Source: Fidelibacterota bacterium
GTDB taxonomy: Bacteria > Fidelibacterota > SORT01
Reading direction: 5' to 3'
Assembly: GCA_022571215.1 (NCBI GenBank)
Contig: JACZYG010000002.1
Location: 54,332 to 118,331, forward strand
DNA length: 64,000 nt
In this document: piece after piece, positions 24,771-54,076 of the stretch
How the letters are laid out: each line of letters opens with the position of its first letter
Position numbering within the stretch: the first letter of the stretch is position 1
The notes under the pieces: model-generated
The model's database searches: none
Told to the model about the DNA's origin: nothing
What the model saw: only the letters and a program-made list of their open reading frames with translations
Program-made: the position numbers and the translations under genes

Positions 24771-24956
24771 AGATAAGATGCATGACCTCCGAATTCAGCT
24801 GTCCATTCGGAATTTCTCTGTTCGATGGAAAAAATTCTTTAGTAGGAATTGTTTTTTTGCAGAAACAATAAAAACTATTCATGCCGGATTACATGAAGAG
24901 ATCAAACATTGGAAAATTGTTTGATAAAACTGATTAGTCGTAAAAGGTGACCTAAT

Positions 24957-25018
24957 CTCCTCCTCCCCCTTAAAAAGGAGGGGAATTAAAATGTGCGGTC
25001 AGGGCTTGCCCTAACCGC
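24957..25018 (+). repeat. Degenerate copy of a dispersed hairpin module (CCCCCT...AGGAGGGG hairpin followed by ATGTGCGGTCAGGG)
   Basis: Sequence similarity to the elements at 32154-32234 and 53895-53962. Confidence 0.45.
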
Positions 25019-25151
25019 CACATAATTTTATTGTCATTGCGCGAGGAGCAGTAAAGCTGCGACGCGACAATCTCAGAAATTAGTTTAGCACCAGAATTTT
25101 GGTGCAACCAGCCTGCATCAGTCGGGCAGGTTCTGCCCGCGCTCATAAAAT

Positions 25152-25198
25152 AACCACCCCTGCCTCTTCGAGGCTTCCCCTCCTTGAAAAGGAGGGGA
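25152..25198 (+). repeat. 47-nt double-hairpin module: AACCACCCC, hairpin GCCTC/GAGGC, hairpin TCCCCTCCT/AGGAGGGGA
   Basis: Same length and architecture as 32022-32068; the first stem differs by compensatory changes while the second stem is identical. Confidence 0.55.
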
Positions 25199-25343
25199 TG
25201 AAAAATCCTGTAAGCTACTCTGAATTCAAGATATAATATTAGTAGAATGACTTGCTGAATCAGCAATAAATCAGGTAATATTTCACTATGAAAAGACCCG
25301 TTTCAATATGAAACTTAAACGTAATACTGAATAATAATGCCGC

Positions 25344-28068: not shown

Positions 28069-28153
28069 GAGTTTATTCACTTGTCTTTCTACATCTTTCA
28101 TCTTACGCTTCTGACGCTATATTACATAAGAGCGGTTCAACACACTTGAAATT

Positions 28154-29442: not shown

Positions 29443-31842
29443 ATGGAAGATTTTGAAAACGAACATATACCTGAAGTATTACCGATACTTCCGCTAAGAA
29501 ATACTGTACTCTTTCCTCAGCAGGTCATACCGATATCAATCGGAAGAGAAAAATCTGTAAGTCTGATTTCGAAAGTAAGTGAAACTAATAAATTGATAGG
29601 CGTAGTCGCTCAGCGTGACGGCTCGGTTGAGCATCCGGAGTCCACAGATTTATATGCCTGGGGAACGCTCGCAGCGGTGCTGAAGGTATTTGATATGCCT
29701 GACGGTAGTAAAAGCGCTATCATACAGGGTCTTCAAAGGATAAAATTGATAACGTATTTAGAGGAAGAGCCATATATCAAAGCGGCAGTGCAGCAAATTT
29801 CCGACGATGAAACGACAAGCGATCTTGAGATTGAGGCTATGGCTGTCAACGTAAGATCCGTTTTTCAGGATATTGTTGAGATTGCGCCATATCTGTCTAT
29901 GGAGCATACGTCCCTTCTGGCGAATATTGACGAACCGGGTAAACTTGTGGATAGGGCTATATCAGTTTTGAATATCCGCACTTCTGAAAAACAGATTGTT
30001 TTAGAAGAGGTGAGTATTCGGCGACGTCTCGAAGAATCAATAATTATTCTCAATAGAGAACTTCAAAGATTACAGTTAGGTGAAAAAATACAAACAGAAG
30101 TTCAGGGTGAAATAAACAAGACCCAGAGAGAATATTTTCTAAGGGAGCAGCTGAAGGCTATTAAAAAAGAGCTTGGTGAGGAGGACGATATTGCCCTCGA
30201 ATTAAGAGAATTGAAAGAGAAGATGGACGCCGCAAAACTAAGCGAAGAAGCATTGAAGGTAGCGGAAAAAGAACTTGACAGGCTAAACCGGATACCTCCT
30301 TCCTCTCCGGAATATACTGTTTCAAGGACATATCTCGATTGGCTTATAGATCTCCCCTGGAGCAAGAATACGGAAGACAATATGGATATAAAAGAAGCCG
30401 CGGCGGTTCTCGACGGTGATCATTACGGCCTCAAAAAGGTCAAAGAGCGGATTCTTGAATATCTTGCCGTTAGAAAACTTAAATCGGACATGAAAGGTCC
30501 TATACTCTGCTTTGTCGGTCCTCCCGGAACTGGAAAAACTTCCGTCGGTAAATCAATAGCCGAAGCGGTTGGAAGAAAATTCGTGAGGATATCACTTGGC
30601 GGAGTTCATGATGAGGCGGAGATAAGGGGTCATCGTAGAACCTACATCGGCGCCTTGCCGGGTCGGATTATACAGGGACTTAAAAAAGCCGGTTCGAATA
30701 ATCCTATATTCATGCTGGACGAGATAGACAAGGTCGGCAAAGATTTTCGCGGGGATCCCTCCTCTGCGCTGCTTGAGGTTCTTGACCCGGAACAGAACGA
30801 CACTTTTTCCGATCATTATTTGGAGGTGGAGTTCGATCTCTCGAAGGTAATGTTCATAGCAACCGCGAATATGGTTGATACCATTCCTCCCGCATTGAGG
30901 GACAGGATGGAGGTAATCGAATTTTCGGGATATATCGAAGAAGAAAAAACTCAGATAGCTCGAAAATTCCTCATTCCGAAACAGCTTGCGGAGCATGGTC
31001 TCAGTGACAGAAAACTCGAATTTGAAGAGTCCGGACTAACAGAGATAGTGCATTCTTATACCCGTGAGTCGGGCGTTAGAAATCTCGAAAGACAATTGGC
31101 GAATGTATCACGCAGAGTCGCGAAAGAAATTGTCGAAGGAAACAAAAAGAAAAAGAGAGTGACCAAGGCAAATGTCGCCGATTATCTCGGGCCTGTCAAA
31201 TTTTTCTCCGATGTTGCCGAACGGACTAAAAAACCGGGTATCGCAACCGGTTTAGCATATACGCCTTCAGGAGGTGATATCTTGTTTATCGAGGCTACAT
31301 CAATGCCCGGAAAGGGAAAACTCACCCTGACCGGTCAACTTGGGGATGTAATGAAAGAGTCCGCCGAAGCCGCGAAGTCCTTCATACGTTCGCAAGCGGA
31401 AGAACTCGGAATTGATCCTAAATTTAATGAAAATACGGATATTCACATACACGTACCCGCGGGAGCAATTCCGAAAGACGGTCCATCGGCGGGCGTAACG
31501 ATGCTTTCCGCGATGGTTTCTCTTTTAACAGGCAGGCGTTTGAAGCTTGATATCGCTATGACTGGTGAGATAACGCTTAGAGGCGCTGTTCTCCCAGTTG
31601 GGGGTATACGGGAAAAAGTTCTCGCTGCTCATCGCGCCGGTATCAAAATGATAATCTTACCTGAGAAGAATAAAAAAGATTTAGAAGAGATACCGAAAAA
31701 AACGCTTCGGGGAATGAAATTCCAATTCGCCTCGGAGATGCTCCAGGTTATAGACCTCGCATTGGTGAAAGCTCCGGGCAGGCATTCTCTTCAGAGCAGT
31801 CCGGTAAAAGGGGCGACCCATATCCAATCCGGGAGAGCGTAA
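29443..31842 (+). CDS. lon: ATP-dependent Lon protease
   Basis: 799 aa; Lon N-terminal domain, AAA+ Walker A GPPGTGKTS, protease domain with catalytic Ser in PKDGPSAG. Confidence 0.95.
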   Translation: MEDFENEHIPEVLPILPLRNTVLFPQQVIPISIGREKSVSLISKVSETNKLIGVVAQRDGSVEHPESTDLYAWGTLAAVLKVFDMPDGSKSAIIQGLQRIKLITYLEEEPYIKAAVQQISDDETTSDLEIEAMAVNVRSVFQDIVEIAPYLSMEHTSLLANIDEPGKLVDRAISVLNIRTSEKQIVLEEVSIRRRLEESIIILNRELQRLQLGEKIQTEVQGEINKTQREYFLREQLKAIKKELGEEDDIALELRELKEKMDAAKLSEEALKVAEKELDRLNRIPPSSPEYTVSRTYLDWLIDLPWSKNTEDNMDIKEAAAVLDGDHYGLKKVKERILEYLAVRKLKSDMKGPILCFVGPPGTGKTSVGKSIAEAVGRKFVRISLGGVHDEAEIRGHRRTYIGALPGRIIQGLKKAGSNNPIFMLDEIDKVGKDFRGDPSSALLEVLDPEQNDTFSDHYLEVEFDLSKVMFIATANMVDTIPPALRDRMEVIEFSGYIEEEKTQIARKFLIPKQLAEHGLSDRKLEFEESGLTEIVHSYTRESGVRNLERQLANVSRRVAKEIVEGNKKKKRVTKANVADYLGPVKFFSDVAERTKKPGIATGLAYTPSGGDILFIEATSMPGKGKLTLTGQLGDVMKESAEAAKSFIRSQAEELGIDPKFNENTDIHIHVPAGAIPKDGPSAGVTMLSAMVSLLTGRRLKLDIAMTGEITLRGAVLPVGGIREKVLAAHRAGIKMIILPEKNKKDLEEIPKKTLRGMKFQFASEMLQVIDLALVKAPGRHSLQSSPVKGATHIQSGRA

Positions 31843-31930
31843 AAGAGTATTATGGAGCGCTCCGAAAGTATTACCGTTGTATAATCTGACTTTAAGATAG
31901 ATATTAAACGGTATCTACCAGCTTGTAAAA

Positions 31931-31960
31931 AACCCTCAATTTTAGTTGGGGGTTTTTCTT
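31931..31960 (+). terminator. Rho-independent terminator downstream of lon
   Basis: AACCCTCAA-ttttag-TTGGGGGTT stem (9 bp with one G-U pair in RNA) followed by TTTCTT. Confidence 0.6.
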
Positions 31961-32021
31961 GATATCACGGTTCATTCCGCTGGAGATTCCCGCCGAACAG
32001 ACTCTGACGGCATTTCAATTC

Positions 32022-32068
32022 AACCACCCCTCCGCTTTCAGCGGCGTCCCCTCCTTGTTAGGAGGGGA
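32022..32068 (+). repeat. 47-nt double-hairpin module: AACCACCCC, hairpin CCGCT/AGCGG, hairpin TCCCCTCCT/AGGAGGGGA
   Basis: Paralogue of 25152-25198 with covarying first stem. Confidence 0.55.
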
Positions 32069-32153
32069 TATCTCAAGGAGGCAATACGTGGCGAGGTCTA
32101 TTTAAAGTCCCGTGGATTAAGGAGAATGCGGATAACTGATTTCTAACTCTCGA

Positions 32154-32234
32154 CACACCCCGCCCTGCGGGCACCCCTCTTTTTAGAGGGGAACTTACAT
32201 CCCATCTTCGATGGGATATGTGCGAGTCAGGATT
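32154..32234 (+). repeat. Composite repeat: degenerate double-hairpin module (GCCC/GGGC and CCCCTCT/AGAGGGG) plus ATCCCATC/GATGGGAT hairpin plus conserved TGTGCGAGTCAGGATT box
   Basis: The 16-nt box at 32219-32234 is identical to 53931-53946; the module architecture matches the other copies. Confidence 0.5.
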
Positions 32235-32320
32235 TACCCGCTTGGCTTCAGCCGGACAGACTCTGACGGAACGAAACCTTAAAACCATTAAAATGGTTCA
32301 AAATATTATACTTCTTTGGA

Positions 32321-32346
32321 TAACCCCTGGATTAATCCAGGGGTTA
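32321..32346. repeat. 26-bp perfect palindrome TAACCCCTGGATTAATCCAGGGGTTA
   Basis: Read directly; self-complementary over its full length. Confidence 0.6.
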
Positions 32347-32686
32347 ATAATATGTAATGTTACGAAAAACCGTTTTAACGGTTTTATTCAAAATTCTACA
32401 ACTCAGACATAGGTCTGGCGAGTCTTGAGTACATAATATGAAGGTGGATTATATGGAGTGCTCGAACGGAGTTCTTACGGAACATCAACTGTGTTGATGC
32501 GGCAATGACTCAGTCAAGGTACTCCAAAAGTATTACCATCGCAGTCCTGACAGTTGCAAAAGTTTCTTGTCATGACACCCTTAAAGAACTGATTCCACAG
32601 CTACCTTTTTATTGCTTTCAAGAGGCGTAAAATCTAAATTACGTTGTTACAGCAAAAGTTAATTTAATTATTTAAAGGTTTAAGAA

Positions 32687-33439
32687 ATGTCCGGTCATTC
32701 CAAATGGAGTACCATAAAAAGAAAAAAGGGTATTGAGGACGCGAAGCGTGGAAAGATATTCACGAAGCTGATAAAGGAGATAACGGTTGCCGCAAAAGAG
32801 GGGGGCGGTGATGAATCATCAAATCCGAGATTAAGAGCTGCCATTTCCGTCGCAAAGAACGCTAATATGCCGGCGGCAAATATCGATAAAGCCATAAAAA
32901 GGGGTACCGGCGAGCTTCCGGGAATAGTTTATGAAGAGGCTGTATACGAGGGTTACGGACCGGGTGGAGCGGCGCTTCTTATGTTCACTCTGACCGATAA
33001 TAAAAACAGGACTGTTTCTGAGTTACGGCATTTGCTCACGAAGGCTGACGGCTCTCTCGCGGGACCGGGCAGCGTGGCATGGATCTTTGAACCTAAGGGG
33101 ATTATTCGGATCAAGAAAGATGGAGTAAACGAGGATGAGGTATTTACGGTAGCGGTTGAAGCGGGCGCCGAAGATATGCAGGCGGAGGACGATATGTATG
33201 AAATAATCACTACTCCTGAAAATTACGAAAGTCTGAAATCAGCCCTCGACAGCTCGGGAATAACTATAGATTCAGCCGAACTTACTCATCTACCGAGCAA
33301 CAGTAAAAAGATCGAGGGTGATGACGCAAAGAAATTCCTTCATTTGATGGAGGAGATAGAATCTCACGATGATATTCAGAACGTCTACTCGAATTTTGAT
33401 ATTGATGATAGTGTCATTGAGGAATTAGCTTCTGTCTGA
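32687..33439 (+). CDS. yebC: YebC/PmpR family DNA-binding transcriptional regulator
   Basis: 250 aa; MSGHSKWSTIKRKKG N-terminus is diagnostic. Confidence 0.9.
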   Translation: MSGHSKWSTIKRKKGIEDAKRGKIFTKLIKEITVAAKEGGGDESSNPRLRAAISVAKNANMPAANIDKAIKRGTGELPGIVYEEAVYEGYGPGGAALLMFTLTDNKNRTVSELRHLLTKADGSLAGPGSVAWIFEPKGIIRIKKDGVNEDEVFTVAVEAGAEDMQAEDDMYEIITTPENYESLKSALDSSGITIDSAELTHLPSNSKKIEGDDAKKFLHLMEEIESHDDIQNVYSNFDIDDSVIEELASV

Positions 33440-33449
33440 GGAGAATAAA

Positions 33450-33929
33450 ATTCTAACCATCCTCGGTATTGATCCGGGTCTTGCCACAGCAGGCTATGGA
33501 GTAATTAATCGAACAGGCAATAAATTAAGTTATGTTGATTCGGGTGAAATCACCACTCAGCCGAAAACTCCGTTTGGAACTCGATTATTGGCGATAAACA
33601 ACTGGCTTCGGGAGATCATTGAAAAAGTGAAGCCTCAAATAGGAGTAGTGGAGGAGACGTTTTACGGATCGAACGCTAAGACAGCTTTACAGATGGGTCA
33701 TGCCCGCGGGGCTATTTTACTGACTCTTTCTCAAGCGAATGTCGAGTGCGCTGAATATTCGGCACGCTCGATAAAGCAGTCTGTGGTCGGTAACGGGAGC
33801 GCTTCAAAAGAGCAGGTAGAATACATGGTAAAGAACATTCTTAATGTGAAGGAGCTGCCGGGCGAACACGCTTCAGATGCGCTTGCGGCGGCGATATGTC
33901 ATGCAAATCACGGAGACTTCGGTCTGTGA
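33450..33929 (+). CDS. ruvC: Holliday junction resolvase RuvC (start codon uncertain)
   Basis: Frame reads ILTILGIDPGLATAGYGVI...ASDALAAAICHANH. The reading frame is open only from 33429 and has no ATG/GTG/TTG before the conserved N-terminus; an ATT at 33450 sits 7 nt after a GGAG. Confidence 0.75.
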   Translation: MLTILGIDPGLATAGYGVINRTGNKLSYVDSGEITTQPKTPFGTRLLAINNWLREIIEKVKPQIGVVEETFYGSNAKTALQMGHARGAILLTLSQANVECAEYSARSIKQSVVGNGSASKEQVEYMVKNILNVKELPGEHASDALAAAICHANHGDFGL

Positions 33930-34528
33930 TAACTCATTTAAAGGGCACACTCGTAAGCAAGGAACCGGTTCTTGTGACCATAGACGTCGGCGGGTTGGGC
34001 TATTCCGTGCATATACCTCTGAGTACCTTTGAAAAACTGCCGGAAAAAGATTCCTCTGTAATGTTATACACGCATCTTCATATCCGGGAAGACGAGATGT
34101 CGCTCTTCGGGTTCTATACCGAGGAAGAGAGGAAAATGTTTCGCCTTCTGATCGCCATATCCGGCATAGGTCCAAAAGTTGCCCTTGGAATCCTTTCCGG
34201 CACAGGCATAATGCAATTGAAAAAAGCGGTTACGGAAGGTGATGTGGAGCGGTTAACAACTATCAAGGGAATAGGAAAGAAAACCGCTCAGCGATTGATA
34301 GTGGAATTAAGGGACAAATTCGGCGCGCCGGATGACGGTGACGAATGGTTGAGAGAGGGCGATGAAGCTGAGTCGGATTCCAGTATCATGACCACTGTTT
34401 CGGCTTTGGAGACGCTCGGTTATTCCCGCAAGCAGGCATTTGAGGCGGCTAAACGGTCCGTTCGTTCTTTAGGCGCGGACGCGCTGCCGGAAGAACTGAT
34501 ACGTGACGCCTTGAGCAATATAAGATAG
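33925..34528 (+). CDS. ruvA: Holliday junction DNA helicase subunit RuvA
   Basis: GTG start overlapping the ruvC stop; (V)ITHLKGTL...LLIAISGIGPKVALGILSG...IKGIGKKTAQRLIVEL HhH motifs. Confidence 0.9.
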
Positions 34529-53894: not shown

Positions 53895-53962
53895 CCGGCT
53901 GCGAGGCTTTCCCTTAAGGGTAGAGAATCGTGTGCGAGTCAGGATTCATCCTGACCGCAAGA
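53895..53962 (+). repeat. Composite repeat: degenerate CGAGGCTTTCCCTTAAGGG module plus conserved TGTGCGAGTCAGGATT box with GTCAGGA-ttca-TCCTGAC hairpin
   Basis: The 16-nt box at 53931-53946 is identical to 32219-32234; the upstream part resembles CGAGGCTTCCCCTCCTT at 25169-25185. Confidence 0.5.
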
Positions 53963-54076
53963 GTATGTATTATTGGCATCGGGGCAAGTCCTGACTGCAC
54001 GGAATCCGCTCAATTGCAAGTTCGCTATGGCTTTAGTATATTCAAGCCTATTCCAATTTTAGAATAGAGGAGAGAT

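Follow-up and report, generated by a model that had tools for sequence, protein, structure and literature searches.

Accretion of short hairpin-forming dispersed repeats as the probable origin of a long lon-yebC spacer in Marinimicrobia

What fills the long, hairpin-rich gap between lon and yebC? In the 64-kb stretch of Marinimicrobia DNA analyzed here (contig JACZYG010000002.1; the window, whose positions serve as coordinates throughout), the lon-yebC spacer measures 844 bp (31843-32686) and is the longest intergenic region, none of the other 15 exceeding 767 bp. We read it as an accretion of short, non-coding, hairpin-forming dispersed repeats, resembling transposable elements of the miniature inverted-repeat type (MITEs), repetitive extragenic palindromic (REP) sequences or bacterial interspersed mosaic elements (BIMEs), lodged between the lon terminator and a conserved region upstream of yebC; we give this reading a probability of roughly three in four. 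An initial annotation of the window had described a long, non-coding, hairpin-dense spacer, and this description is borne out: the spacer holds seven perfect hairpins (stem of at least 7, loop of at most 8) against 0.47 +/- 0.70 expected, a number reached by 0 of 1000 dinucleotide shuffles, while the other 15 intergenic regions hold 0 or 1 apiece. The RNA fold of the whole spacer has a z-score of -6.2.

YebC homologues mark the source as a metagenome-assembled genome of Candidatus Marinimicrobia and yield a graded series of relatives. The comparison of the locus in 20 contigs of these relatives (L-numbers denote loci) shows how such a spacer could have arisen. The shortest spacers, 196 bp in L011-L015 (YebC 89% identical to that of the window) and 199 bp in L020 (85%), hold a clean intrinsic terminator, preceded by about 50 nt and followed by about 40 nt and then by the conserved region upstream of yebC; the spacer is here in its minimal and probably also ancestral form. 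Longer spacers are found in L008-L010 (YebC 91%; 317 bp, with a C-rich hairpin pair and other modules), L016-L019 (88%; 329 bp, with the right-hand hairpins and neither copy of the direct repeat discussed below) and L003 (98%; 427 bp, without two blocks), and the full architecture of 843-870 bp is shared by the window, L002 and L005-L007 (97-100%). Two parts only are common to all relatives. The first is the hairpin AAAAACCCTCAA-ttttag-TTGGGGGTTTTT (31928-31957, + strand; fold -15.2 kcal/mol, z -3.4), which resembles an intrinsic terminator of lon; it corresponds to the terminator of the minimal spacers, L011 and L020 having a homologous hairpin. The second is made up of the last 88 bp or so before yebC, which are 81-100% identical across all lineages; by alignment, 32601-32686 (+ strand) is the conserved upstream region and presumably holds the yebC promoter and 5' untranslated region. 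Because nothing else is common to all relatives, nearly the whole hairpin region is lineage-specific and dispensable. The alignments indicate that an ancestral-type spacer of about 200 bp grew stepwise to 844 bp through blocks that vary among lineages and even between 99%-identical strains.

One of these blocks is a 310-bp insert (32235-32544, + strand), recognized by alignment of the spacers: it is present in L002 and L004-L007 but absent from L016-L019 and from L003, whose lon is 99.8% identical to that of the window. The insert lies in the loop of a REP-like palindrome, module B, whose left arm TGTGCGAGTCAGGATT (32219-32234, + strand) it parts from the right arm (TCCTGAC...; 32545-32600, + strand, comprising the arm and sequence common to L003 and L016, 86% identical to L016). 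Its junctions read GTCAGGATT/TACCC... and ...CGCAG/TCCTGAC, and the empty site is GTCAGGATTCATCCTGAC. The intact palindrome occurs at the lon-yebC site as GAGTCAGG in L003 and as GAATCAGG in L016-L019 (palindrome GAGTCAGGATTCATCCTGAC in the former, the variant GAATCAGGATTCATCCTGAC in the latter), and it recurs elsewhere in the window, where GTCAGGATTCATCCTGAC is found at 53938-53955 and GAGTCAGGATTCATCCTGAC at 53936-53955. Since a deletion that recreates an exact palindrome is very unlikely, we take the 310 bp to be an insertion into the loop of a REP-like hairpin. Neither terminal inverted repeats (TIRs; TIR test score 8) at the ends of 32235-32544 nor a target-site duplication at its junctions was found. 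The 3' part of the insert, segment S2 (32444-32544), carries the hairpin CATCAAC-tgt-GTTGATG (32483-32499) enclosed by GGAGT../..ACTCC and has fold z-scores of -1.0 (+ strand) and -2.6 (- strand). It is related to two further segments, S1 (31846-31893) and S3 (about 53959-53997). S1 spans about 47 bp right after the lon stop, has the palindrome GGAGCGCTCC and is absent from the L011 and L020 spacers; local alignment with S2 gives CTCCGAAAGTATTACC at 15/16 (3/1000 shuffles), a resemblance between S1 and the 3' part of the insert.

The left half of the insert links the spacer to sequences far beyond it. Between 32270 and 32392 (+ strand) lies a three-hairpin core of about 123 bp (fold z -6.2), made up of hp1 (AACCATT-aa-AATGGTT, 32283-32298), a perfect 26-bp palindrome (32321-32346) and hp2 (AAAACCGTT-tt-AACGGTTTT, 32366-32385); the dispersed family to which this core belongs has no further copy in the window. 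A search of public metagenome contigs for the 22 nt at the heart of the palindrome gave 17 loci (L095-L111, mostly Ga0114931, e.g. L108 2320-2523), 12 of them on different contigs of one metagenome. Most of the metagenome copies align as an intergenic element of about 205 bp with an invariant central palindrome of 26 bp, with at least 14 copies on 13-14 contigs from three metagenomes. In order, the element consists of the TIR TTAACGTGAGTTCGAnATAAC, the hairpin AAATCGTT-gaa-AACGATTT and the 26-bp palindrome, with about 20 variable nt between the latter two, then another 20 or so variable nt, the hairpin AAACCGTT-tt-AACGGTTT and, after about 70 nt more, the inverted terminal repeat. The TIRs measure about 20 bp (TTAACGTGAGTTCGA.../...TCGAACTCACGTTAA), and both ends are always TTAA, so TIR and duplication are indistinguishable. 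The 205-bp element is a typical MITE, as yet undescribed. A profile of this family finds the window at 32267-32390 (nhmmer, E=2.3e-15) over profile positions 30-143 of 217, that is, over the core only; the positions that include the TIRs (1-29 and 144-217) do not match, and the profile has no other match in the window or in the orthologous loci. An IS256-family transposase with ends unrelated to the element is found at a distance of about 600 bp from one metagenome copy; its closest named entries are from Balneolaceae, and the host of the family is uncertain.

Are there other copies in the same lineage? Relatives' contigs allowed us to widen the sampling by about 10 kb past each end of the window, and a second, diverged copy of the core was found about 6 kb past the left end, in a spacer flanked by genes for a DegT-type aminotransferase and for Omp85 (L112 16898-17072, also in L113 and L114; nhmmer E=4e-7 over L112 16910-17057). 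This element is collinear with window 32236-32402, the left half of the 310-bp insert. Its hp1 is identical (AACCATTAAAATGGTT) and its hp2 the same, while the center differs yet is perfectly palindromic (ACACCCGACTTAAGTCGGGTGT). The left motif reads CCCGCCTGGCATCAGTCGGAC in L112 versus CCCGCTTGGCTTCAGCCGGAC in the window, where it runs straight into the 19-bp direct repeat. To the right, the L112 element continues with a C-rich double hairpin, the hairpin GATAtTC-gaa-GATTATC and GACGGGGTGTGT; nearly all of the lon-yebC spacer of L008 is homologous to this right part. Judged from these alignments, the parts belong to one composite dispersed repeat, here called E, which consists of a left motif, the three-hairpin core and C-rich hairpins, variously combined from copy to copy.

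The composite repeat also accounts for the direct repeats of the spacer. The two 19-bp sequences, GCCGAACAGACTCTGACGG (31992-32010) and GCCGGACAGACTCTGACGG (32251-32269), are 18/19 identical, lie in the same orientation 259 bp apart and are the only two matches to the repeat in the window at up to three mismatches, against 0.03 expected by chance. Allowing two small gaps, the similarity extends over about 33 bp (31977-32010 versus 32238-32269, both on the + strand; a 34-column alignment whose score is reached by 0/1000 shuffles). Copy 2 lies at the extreme 5' end of the 310-bp insert. Its homologue in the L112 element is the left motif CCCGCCTGGCATCAGTCGGAC, and it shares the left motif CCCGCYTGGCWTCAGYCGGAC with the copy in L112-L114. 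Copy 1 joins directly to CATTTCAA...AACCACCCC and the C-rich hairpins; at the corresponding place in L008, hp2 adjoins CATTTCAA / CATTTCAACCACACC. Copy 2 is thus best described as the left motif of a copy of E with the core, and copy 1 as that of a partial copy without it; the direct repeats are explained, on this homology, as the 5' segments of two partial copies of E in the same orientation. The 18-nt motif CCGRACAGACTCYGACGG gave 74 single hits in unrelated taxa and no Marinimicrobia locus among 185,579 representative genomes, about the chance level (about 69 expected by our own calculation), and it is therefore not a widespread repeat.

The middle of the spacer is equally modular. L003 belongs to the species of the window (lon 3' end 99.8% identical, yebC 98.7%) and retains a variant of repeat copy 1, the C-rich double hairpin at 32022-32070 and the hairpins at 32174-32217; besides the 310-bp insert, it lacks about 100 bp (about 32071-32172), in place of which it carries GGAAAAATT, like L008. 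L016-L019 carry 32078-32234 without either repeat copy. In the L003 haplotype, the middle resembles L008 and the right part L016, even to the point of sharing a single-nucleotide polymorphism, and such mosaic haplotypes point to recombination at shared hairpins. Within this region, the segment between the two C-rich hairpins (32071-32141) is variable: L016 is 81% identical, and L003 and L008 have GGAAAAATT instead. It is followed by a cluster of three hairpins (32142-32217, + strand), CCCGC-cct-GCGGG (32159-32171), CCCCTCT-tttt-AGAGGGG (32174-32191) and ATCCCATC-ttc-GATGGGAT (32199-32217), which can be closed by CGACACA/TGTGCG pairing and folds with z -4.75. Over 32142-32234, this cluster is 98% identical to L016 (4783-4856), compared with 88% for the lon and yebC genes and 81% for the sequence just upstream, which could reflect either constraint or recent exchange between lineages. 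A further variable spot lies near 31990, just 5' of repeat copy 1: L004 and L005 have 21 extra bp (CAGACGGATGTCGGGCTGGAG) that resemble a degenerate tandem copy of the repeat motif, and L003 lacks 13 bp flanked by CCGC repeats, which suggests a local instability of the slippage type.

Several of the modules recur in other intergenic regions of the window. Module A comprises AACCACCCCTCC, the hairpin CCGC-tttca-GCGG and the hairpin TCCCCTCCT-tgtt-AGGAGGGGA (32047-32068); its first copy is the C-rich double hairpin at 32022-32070 (+ strand, fold z -4.9), and another lies at 25152-25199 (+ strand), where the same C-rich make-up of AACCACCCCT, a small hairpin and TCCCCTCCTTG..AGGAGGGGAT is repeated. 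The pattern CCCCTC-N(3-12)-GAGGGG occurs three times in the window, always between genes, against 0.03 expected. Palindromes like module B likewise number three in the 64 kb, all intergenic, and include 24991-25023 and 53931-53962. In a third intergenic region (53931-53997, + strand), the intact module B palindrome is followed by a second TCCTGAC and the roughly 33 nt of S3, which resembles the 3' end of the 310-bp insert. Upstream of a cytochrome-c-assembly gene, a hairpin-dense block of 176 bp (24941-25116) varies between strains: direct repeats of 8 bp, ATTAGTCG and ATCAGTCG, lie on either side of it (24933-25124 with the repeats), and it is missing in five strains that are nearly identical, where the empty site reads AAAACTG-AT[C/T]AGTCG-GGCAGG, with the C or the T variant of the repeat. 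This block could be either an insertion with an 8-bp duplication or the result of one or more microhomology deletions.

The hairpins themselves appear to be maintained. Over 14 copies, pairing holds in 98.4% of cells for the central palindrome and hp2, versus 22-55% when the partners are slid against each other. Four compensatory pairs are found in the central palindrome, all in the single L112 copy, and hp1 differs between AACCATT/AATGGTT in Marinimicrobia and AATCGTT/AACGATT in the metagenome family by two compensated pairs. Because pairing is kept and changes are compensated, we conclude that these sequences are maintained as hairpins; this fits recognition of a DNA (or RNA) structure by a mobilizing enzyme, and the pairing does not separate the DNA from the RNA level. 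Closing stems that would give cloverleaf structures in L008 and L112 were also considered and dropped, as they are not conserved between copies, and a reading of the core as an integron attC-like site was set aside, with no integrase or cassette arrays in the loci seen.

How could the blocks have come together? They may have arrived by transposition in trans, with a transposase encoded elsewhere. An insertion into a hairpin loop without TIRs or target duplication would fit HUH/Y1 enzymes (IS200/IS605; REP-associated tyrosine transposases, RAYTs) or IS110-type enzymes better than DDE cut-and-paste and hints at single-strand (HUH-type) mobilization. Homologous recombination between shared C-rich hairpins would then have shuffled the modules into the haplotypes seen today. 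The metagenome relatives, whose TIRs start with TTAA, look DDE-like, unlike the insert in the window, so the shared core may be a module carried by different vehicles. The hairpins would be kept for recognition of the element and not for the sake of lon or yebC, to which they might at most add some termination or insulation. Since all insertions fall after the lon terminator and before the conserved region upstream of yebC, their effect on the host is probably neutral.

Several observations weigh against the accretion reading. The copy in the window has neither the TIRs of the metagenome family nor a target duplication, and over about 100 kb of the lineage the core was seen only twice (window 32267-32390 and L112 16910-17057). 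The Pfam lists covering the inspected part of the lineage, roughly 100 kb, contain no transposase and, in particular, no RAYT (PF01797). Among the sequences compared, 32071-32141, S2 and the three-hairpin cluster have no second long copy, and the 98% identity of that cluster, next to 88% in the genes, could mean a function at the level of the host. The difference at 32071-32172 and the 24.9-kb block may each be an insertion or a deletion. Finally, the repeat motif stays at chance level in the representative genomes, a collection from which the source species is seemingly absent.

A more specific mechanism can be imagined on the same evidence. The core may be a self-standing functional module that elements otherwise unlike each other carry in at least two bacterial lineages, and it could serve as the recognition site for an HUH/Y1 or IS110-type enzyme, with elements inserting specifically into the loops of REP-like hairpins and building nested hairpin-in-hairpin arrays. 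There is one case of a hairpin-loop insertion, the 310-bp block in the loop of GTCAGGATT^CATCCTGAC, and we regard this proposal as tentative and rather unlikely. If true, it would describe a class of hairpin-loop-targeting, non-autonomous elements in the FCB group with a modular, not a fixed, architecture.

The spacer had also been suggested to hold a cluster of small RNAs (sRNAs), and some of its hairpin clusters (32142-32234, or the core formed by hp1, the palindrome and hp2) could indeed be structured sRNA genes or cis-acting RNA elements, with the repeats secondary. The predicted structure is strong (z -4.75 and -6.2), lineages whose genes are 88% identical agree to 98% in the three-hairpin cluster, and the core shows compensatory changes. 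The architecture of the cluster also matches the three-hairpin model of anti-hemB (RF02837; 32157-32225, E=3e-5), the best sub-threshold hit in Rfam. But this match scores 28.9 bits, far under the gathering score of 49.5, and is an alignment of three stems with little sequence identity in which the U-tail of the model is missing, so that it reflects stem geometry only. None of the 4227 Rfam families reaches its gathering score anywhere in the window (the region was also searched at E<=10), and, despite the cloverleaf-like look of S2 and of the three-hairpin cluster, ARAGORN finds neither a tRNA nor a tmRNA. The segments are dispensable: they are missing from close relatives that retain lon, yebC and the yebC upstream region. 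They lie 3' of the lon terminator, with no sigma-70-like promoter found on the + strand; the promoter scan gave three sites, all on the - strand, against a shuffle expectation of 1.8 +/- 1.5. The palindromic symmetry is equally expected for recognition by a transposase at the DNA level, and the four compensatory pairs of the palindrome all come from one copy. We therefore consider an RNA function of these clusters unlikely.

Could the hairpins instead stop transcription? In this explanation, the spacer would be a terminator array, an insulator or a regulatory leader selected to stop read-through from lon or to control yebC-ruvCA. Both genes lie on the same strand, one good terminator-like hairpin (31928-31957) keeps its position across lineages, and hp1 and hp2, each an A-tract, hairpin and T-tract, resemble weak bidirectional terminators. 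Relatives, however, manage with one terminator in a spacer of 196-199 bp, and a scan of 31700-32800 returned no canonical terminator where 1.3 were expected. By eye, only the hairpin at 31928-31957 is followed by a T-run; the C-rich hairpins have none after them on the + strand. The terminator array proposed by the initial annotation thus shrinks to this single hairpin. The content of the spacer varies between 99%-identical strains, which would be unexpected for a tuned regulatory leader, and we hold this explanation to be quite improbable.

A mobile element had been suspected in the spacer from the outset, and part of that idea stands: the sequences are lineage-specific and vary between strains, and modules recur at other loci and in metagenomes. 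What does not stand is a single unit, 32011-32250, bracketed by the direct repeats, which would then be a miniature mobile element or an integration scar with a target duplication or att-like ends. The repeats are real, direct, 18/19 identical, 259 bp apart and unique in the window, but the relatives neither gain nor lose the segment as a unit, and the model of a target duplication or scar fails for this reason. In L003, copy 1 is accompanied by the hairpins at 32022-32070 and 32174-32234 but not by copy 2, which travels with the other block, 32235-32544, and L016 has 32078-32234 with neither copy. The gapped similarity of about 33 bp, which runs into the motif of an element elsewhere, marks homologous element ends and not a duplicated target, and we find the bracketed unit highly implausible. 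A chimeric or mis-joined contig can be dismissed with near certainty: several assemblies do have N-gaps or contig ends in the repeat regions, but the 843-870-bp architecture is found base for base in at least four independent assemblies (L002, L005, L006 and L007) from different samples and assemblers, and the junctions of the 310-bp block have no direct repeats able to cause a collapse.

The spacer is flanked by lon (endopeptidase La; 29443-31842, + strand; NCBIfam TIGR00763, 1000 bits) and yebC/pmpR (32687-33439, + strand; NCBIfam NF001030, 328 bits). These flanks, the direct repeats and the palindrome lie where the initial annotation had placed them, as do the hairpins it listed; further perfect hairpins are TCCCCTCCT..AGGAGGGGA, CCCCTCT..AGAGGGG and CATCAAC..GTTGATG. 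Gene callers place no gene in the spacer in any relative, and a six-frame pseudo-protein of 31958-32600 has no homologue among 5.8 billion proteins. Downstream of yebC, the start of the ruvC frame (33588-33929 / 33896-34528) differs widely among assemblies, with frames of 100, 113, 126, 134 and 165 aa called; since the 165-aa frame runs into the end of yebC, the true start is uncertain. In L120 (13147-13824), an extra open reading frame of 225 aa without a Pfam hit lies between a sigma-54 activator and an NMT1_2 substrate-binding gene; neither the window (28069-28153) nor the other strains have it.

What does this mean for the lineage? An uncultured, streamlined-looking marine bacterium appears to carry active or recently active miniature repeats that are recombined between strains. 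The repeats mark strain-level haplotypes in deep-sea populations, and they break metagenome assemblies of Marinimicrobia. N-gaps or contig ends fall exactly on repeat clusters in the L001 and L004 spacers, at about 9.6-10.0 kb in L121, at 16600-16699 in L114 and at the starts of L123 and L125, with flanks duplicated around the N-gap in L004 and L114; evidently, these repeats break short-read assemblies of this population. In practical terms, the spacer should not carry an sRNA or riboswitch annotation. The general knowledge of how such elements work is unchanged by our findings.

Finally, we would place the spacer among known kinds of repeats and RNAs. Anti-hemB (RF02837, Burkholderia RNA 7) is alike in having three consecutive hairpins with similar stem and loop sizes, but differs in score (28.9 versus 49.5 bits), in its sequence, with little identity, in the terminal U-tract, which is lacking here, and in an unrelated organism and context. 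The Tn3-derived miniature elements known as TIMEs are alike as small non-autonomous elements that generate mosaic composites. Compared with the 38-bp inverted repeat of Tn3, TTAACGTGAGTT at the tip of a metagenome element (L108 2320-2334) matches 12/12 and GGAACGAAACCT beside repeat copy 2 (window 32266-32277) 11/12; both are leads only. We rejected membership in this group, as the matches are partial, covering 11-12 nt, the 12/12 match is misoriented, with the inner end of the repeat at the element tip, and neither a 38-bp inverted repeat nor a GGGG tip nor a duplication of 5 bp is present. TIMEs measure 262 bp and are mostly single-copy in Pseudomonas; they carry 38-bp TIRs of the Tn3 family, tipped with GGGG, and a 5-bp duplication (PMC4133298).

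REP sequences, REPINs and BIMEs with their RAYTs (PMC3116915, PMC3337134, PMC3733652) are closer in several respects. Modules A and B are imperfect palindromes of 20-35 bp found in several intergenic regions, they form mosaic clusters with other short motifs downstream of a gene, the content of these clusters varies between strains, and an insertion without TIRs or target duplication is what would be expected of HUH/Y1 enzymes. The differences lie in the low copy number seen (three of each module in 64 kb), in the DNA inspected having no RAYT gene and in the lineage, Marinimicrobia and not Proteobacteria. By definition, a REP is an imperfect palindrome of 20-40 bp, one end of which bears an unpaired tag, GTAG or CGTC (PMC3733652); inspection of the copies at 24991-25023, 25152-25199, 32022-32070, 32153-32195 and 53931-53962 reveals no consistent tag of either kind.

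With MITEs such as the Correia/NEMIS elements of Neisseria and ERIC/IRU of enterobacteria (PMC2229807, PMC10969869), the repeats share a small size (100-300 bp), a non-coding, intergenic nature, long hairpins, dispersed copies and presence or absence between strains, and the metagenome relatives have TIRs of about 20 bp. The insert is of MITE size (310 bp, under about 500 bp), non-coding and polymorphic at orthologous sites (32235-32544), but the copy in the window differs in being the internal three-hairpin core only, with neither TIRs nor target duplication. No parent insertion sequence or transposase is known, and the searches revealed no sequence similarity to described families: the palindrome has no match in viral contigs, blastn of the insert, the spacer and a metagenome element against plasmids and phages returned nothing, and neither the palindrome sequence nor a MITE in Marinimicrobia was matched in the papers searched. 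The repeat families of the lon-yebC spacer therefore appear to be undescribed, while the kind of structure they build, a cluster of BIMEs and REPs or a nest of MITEs, is a familiar one (PMC2229807, PMC3116915, PMC3733652, PMC10969869).

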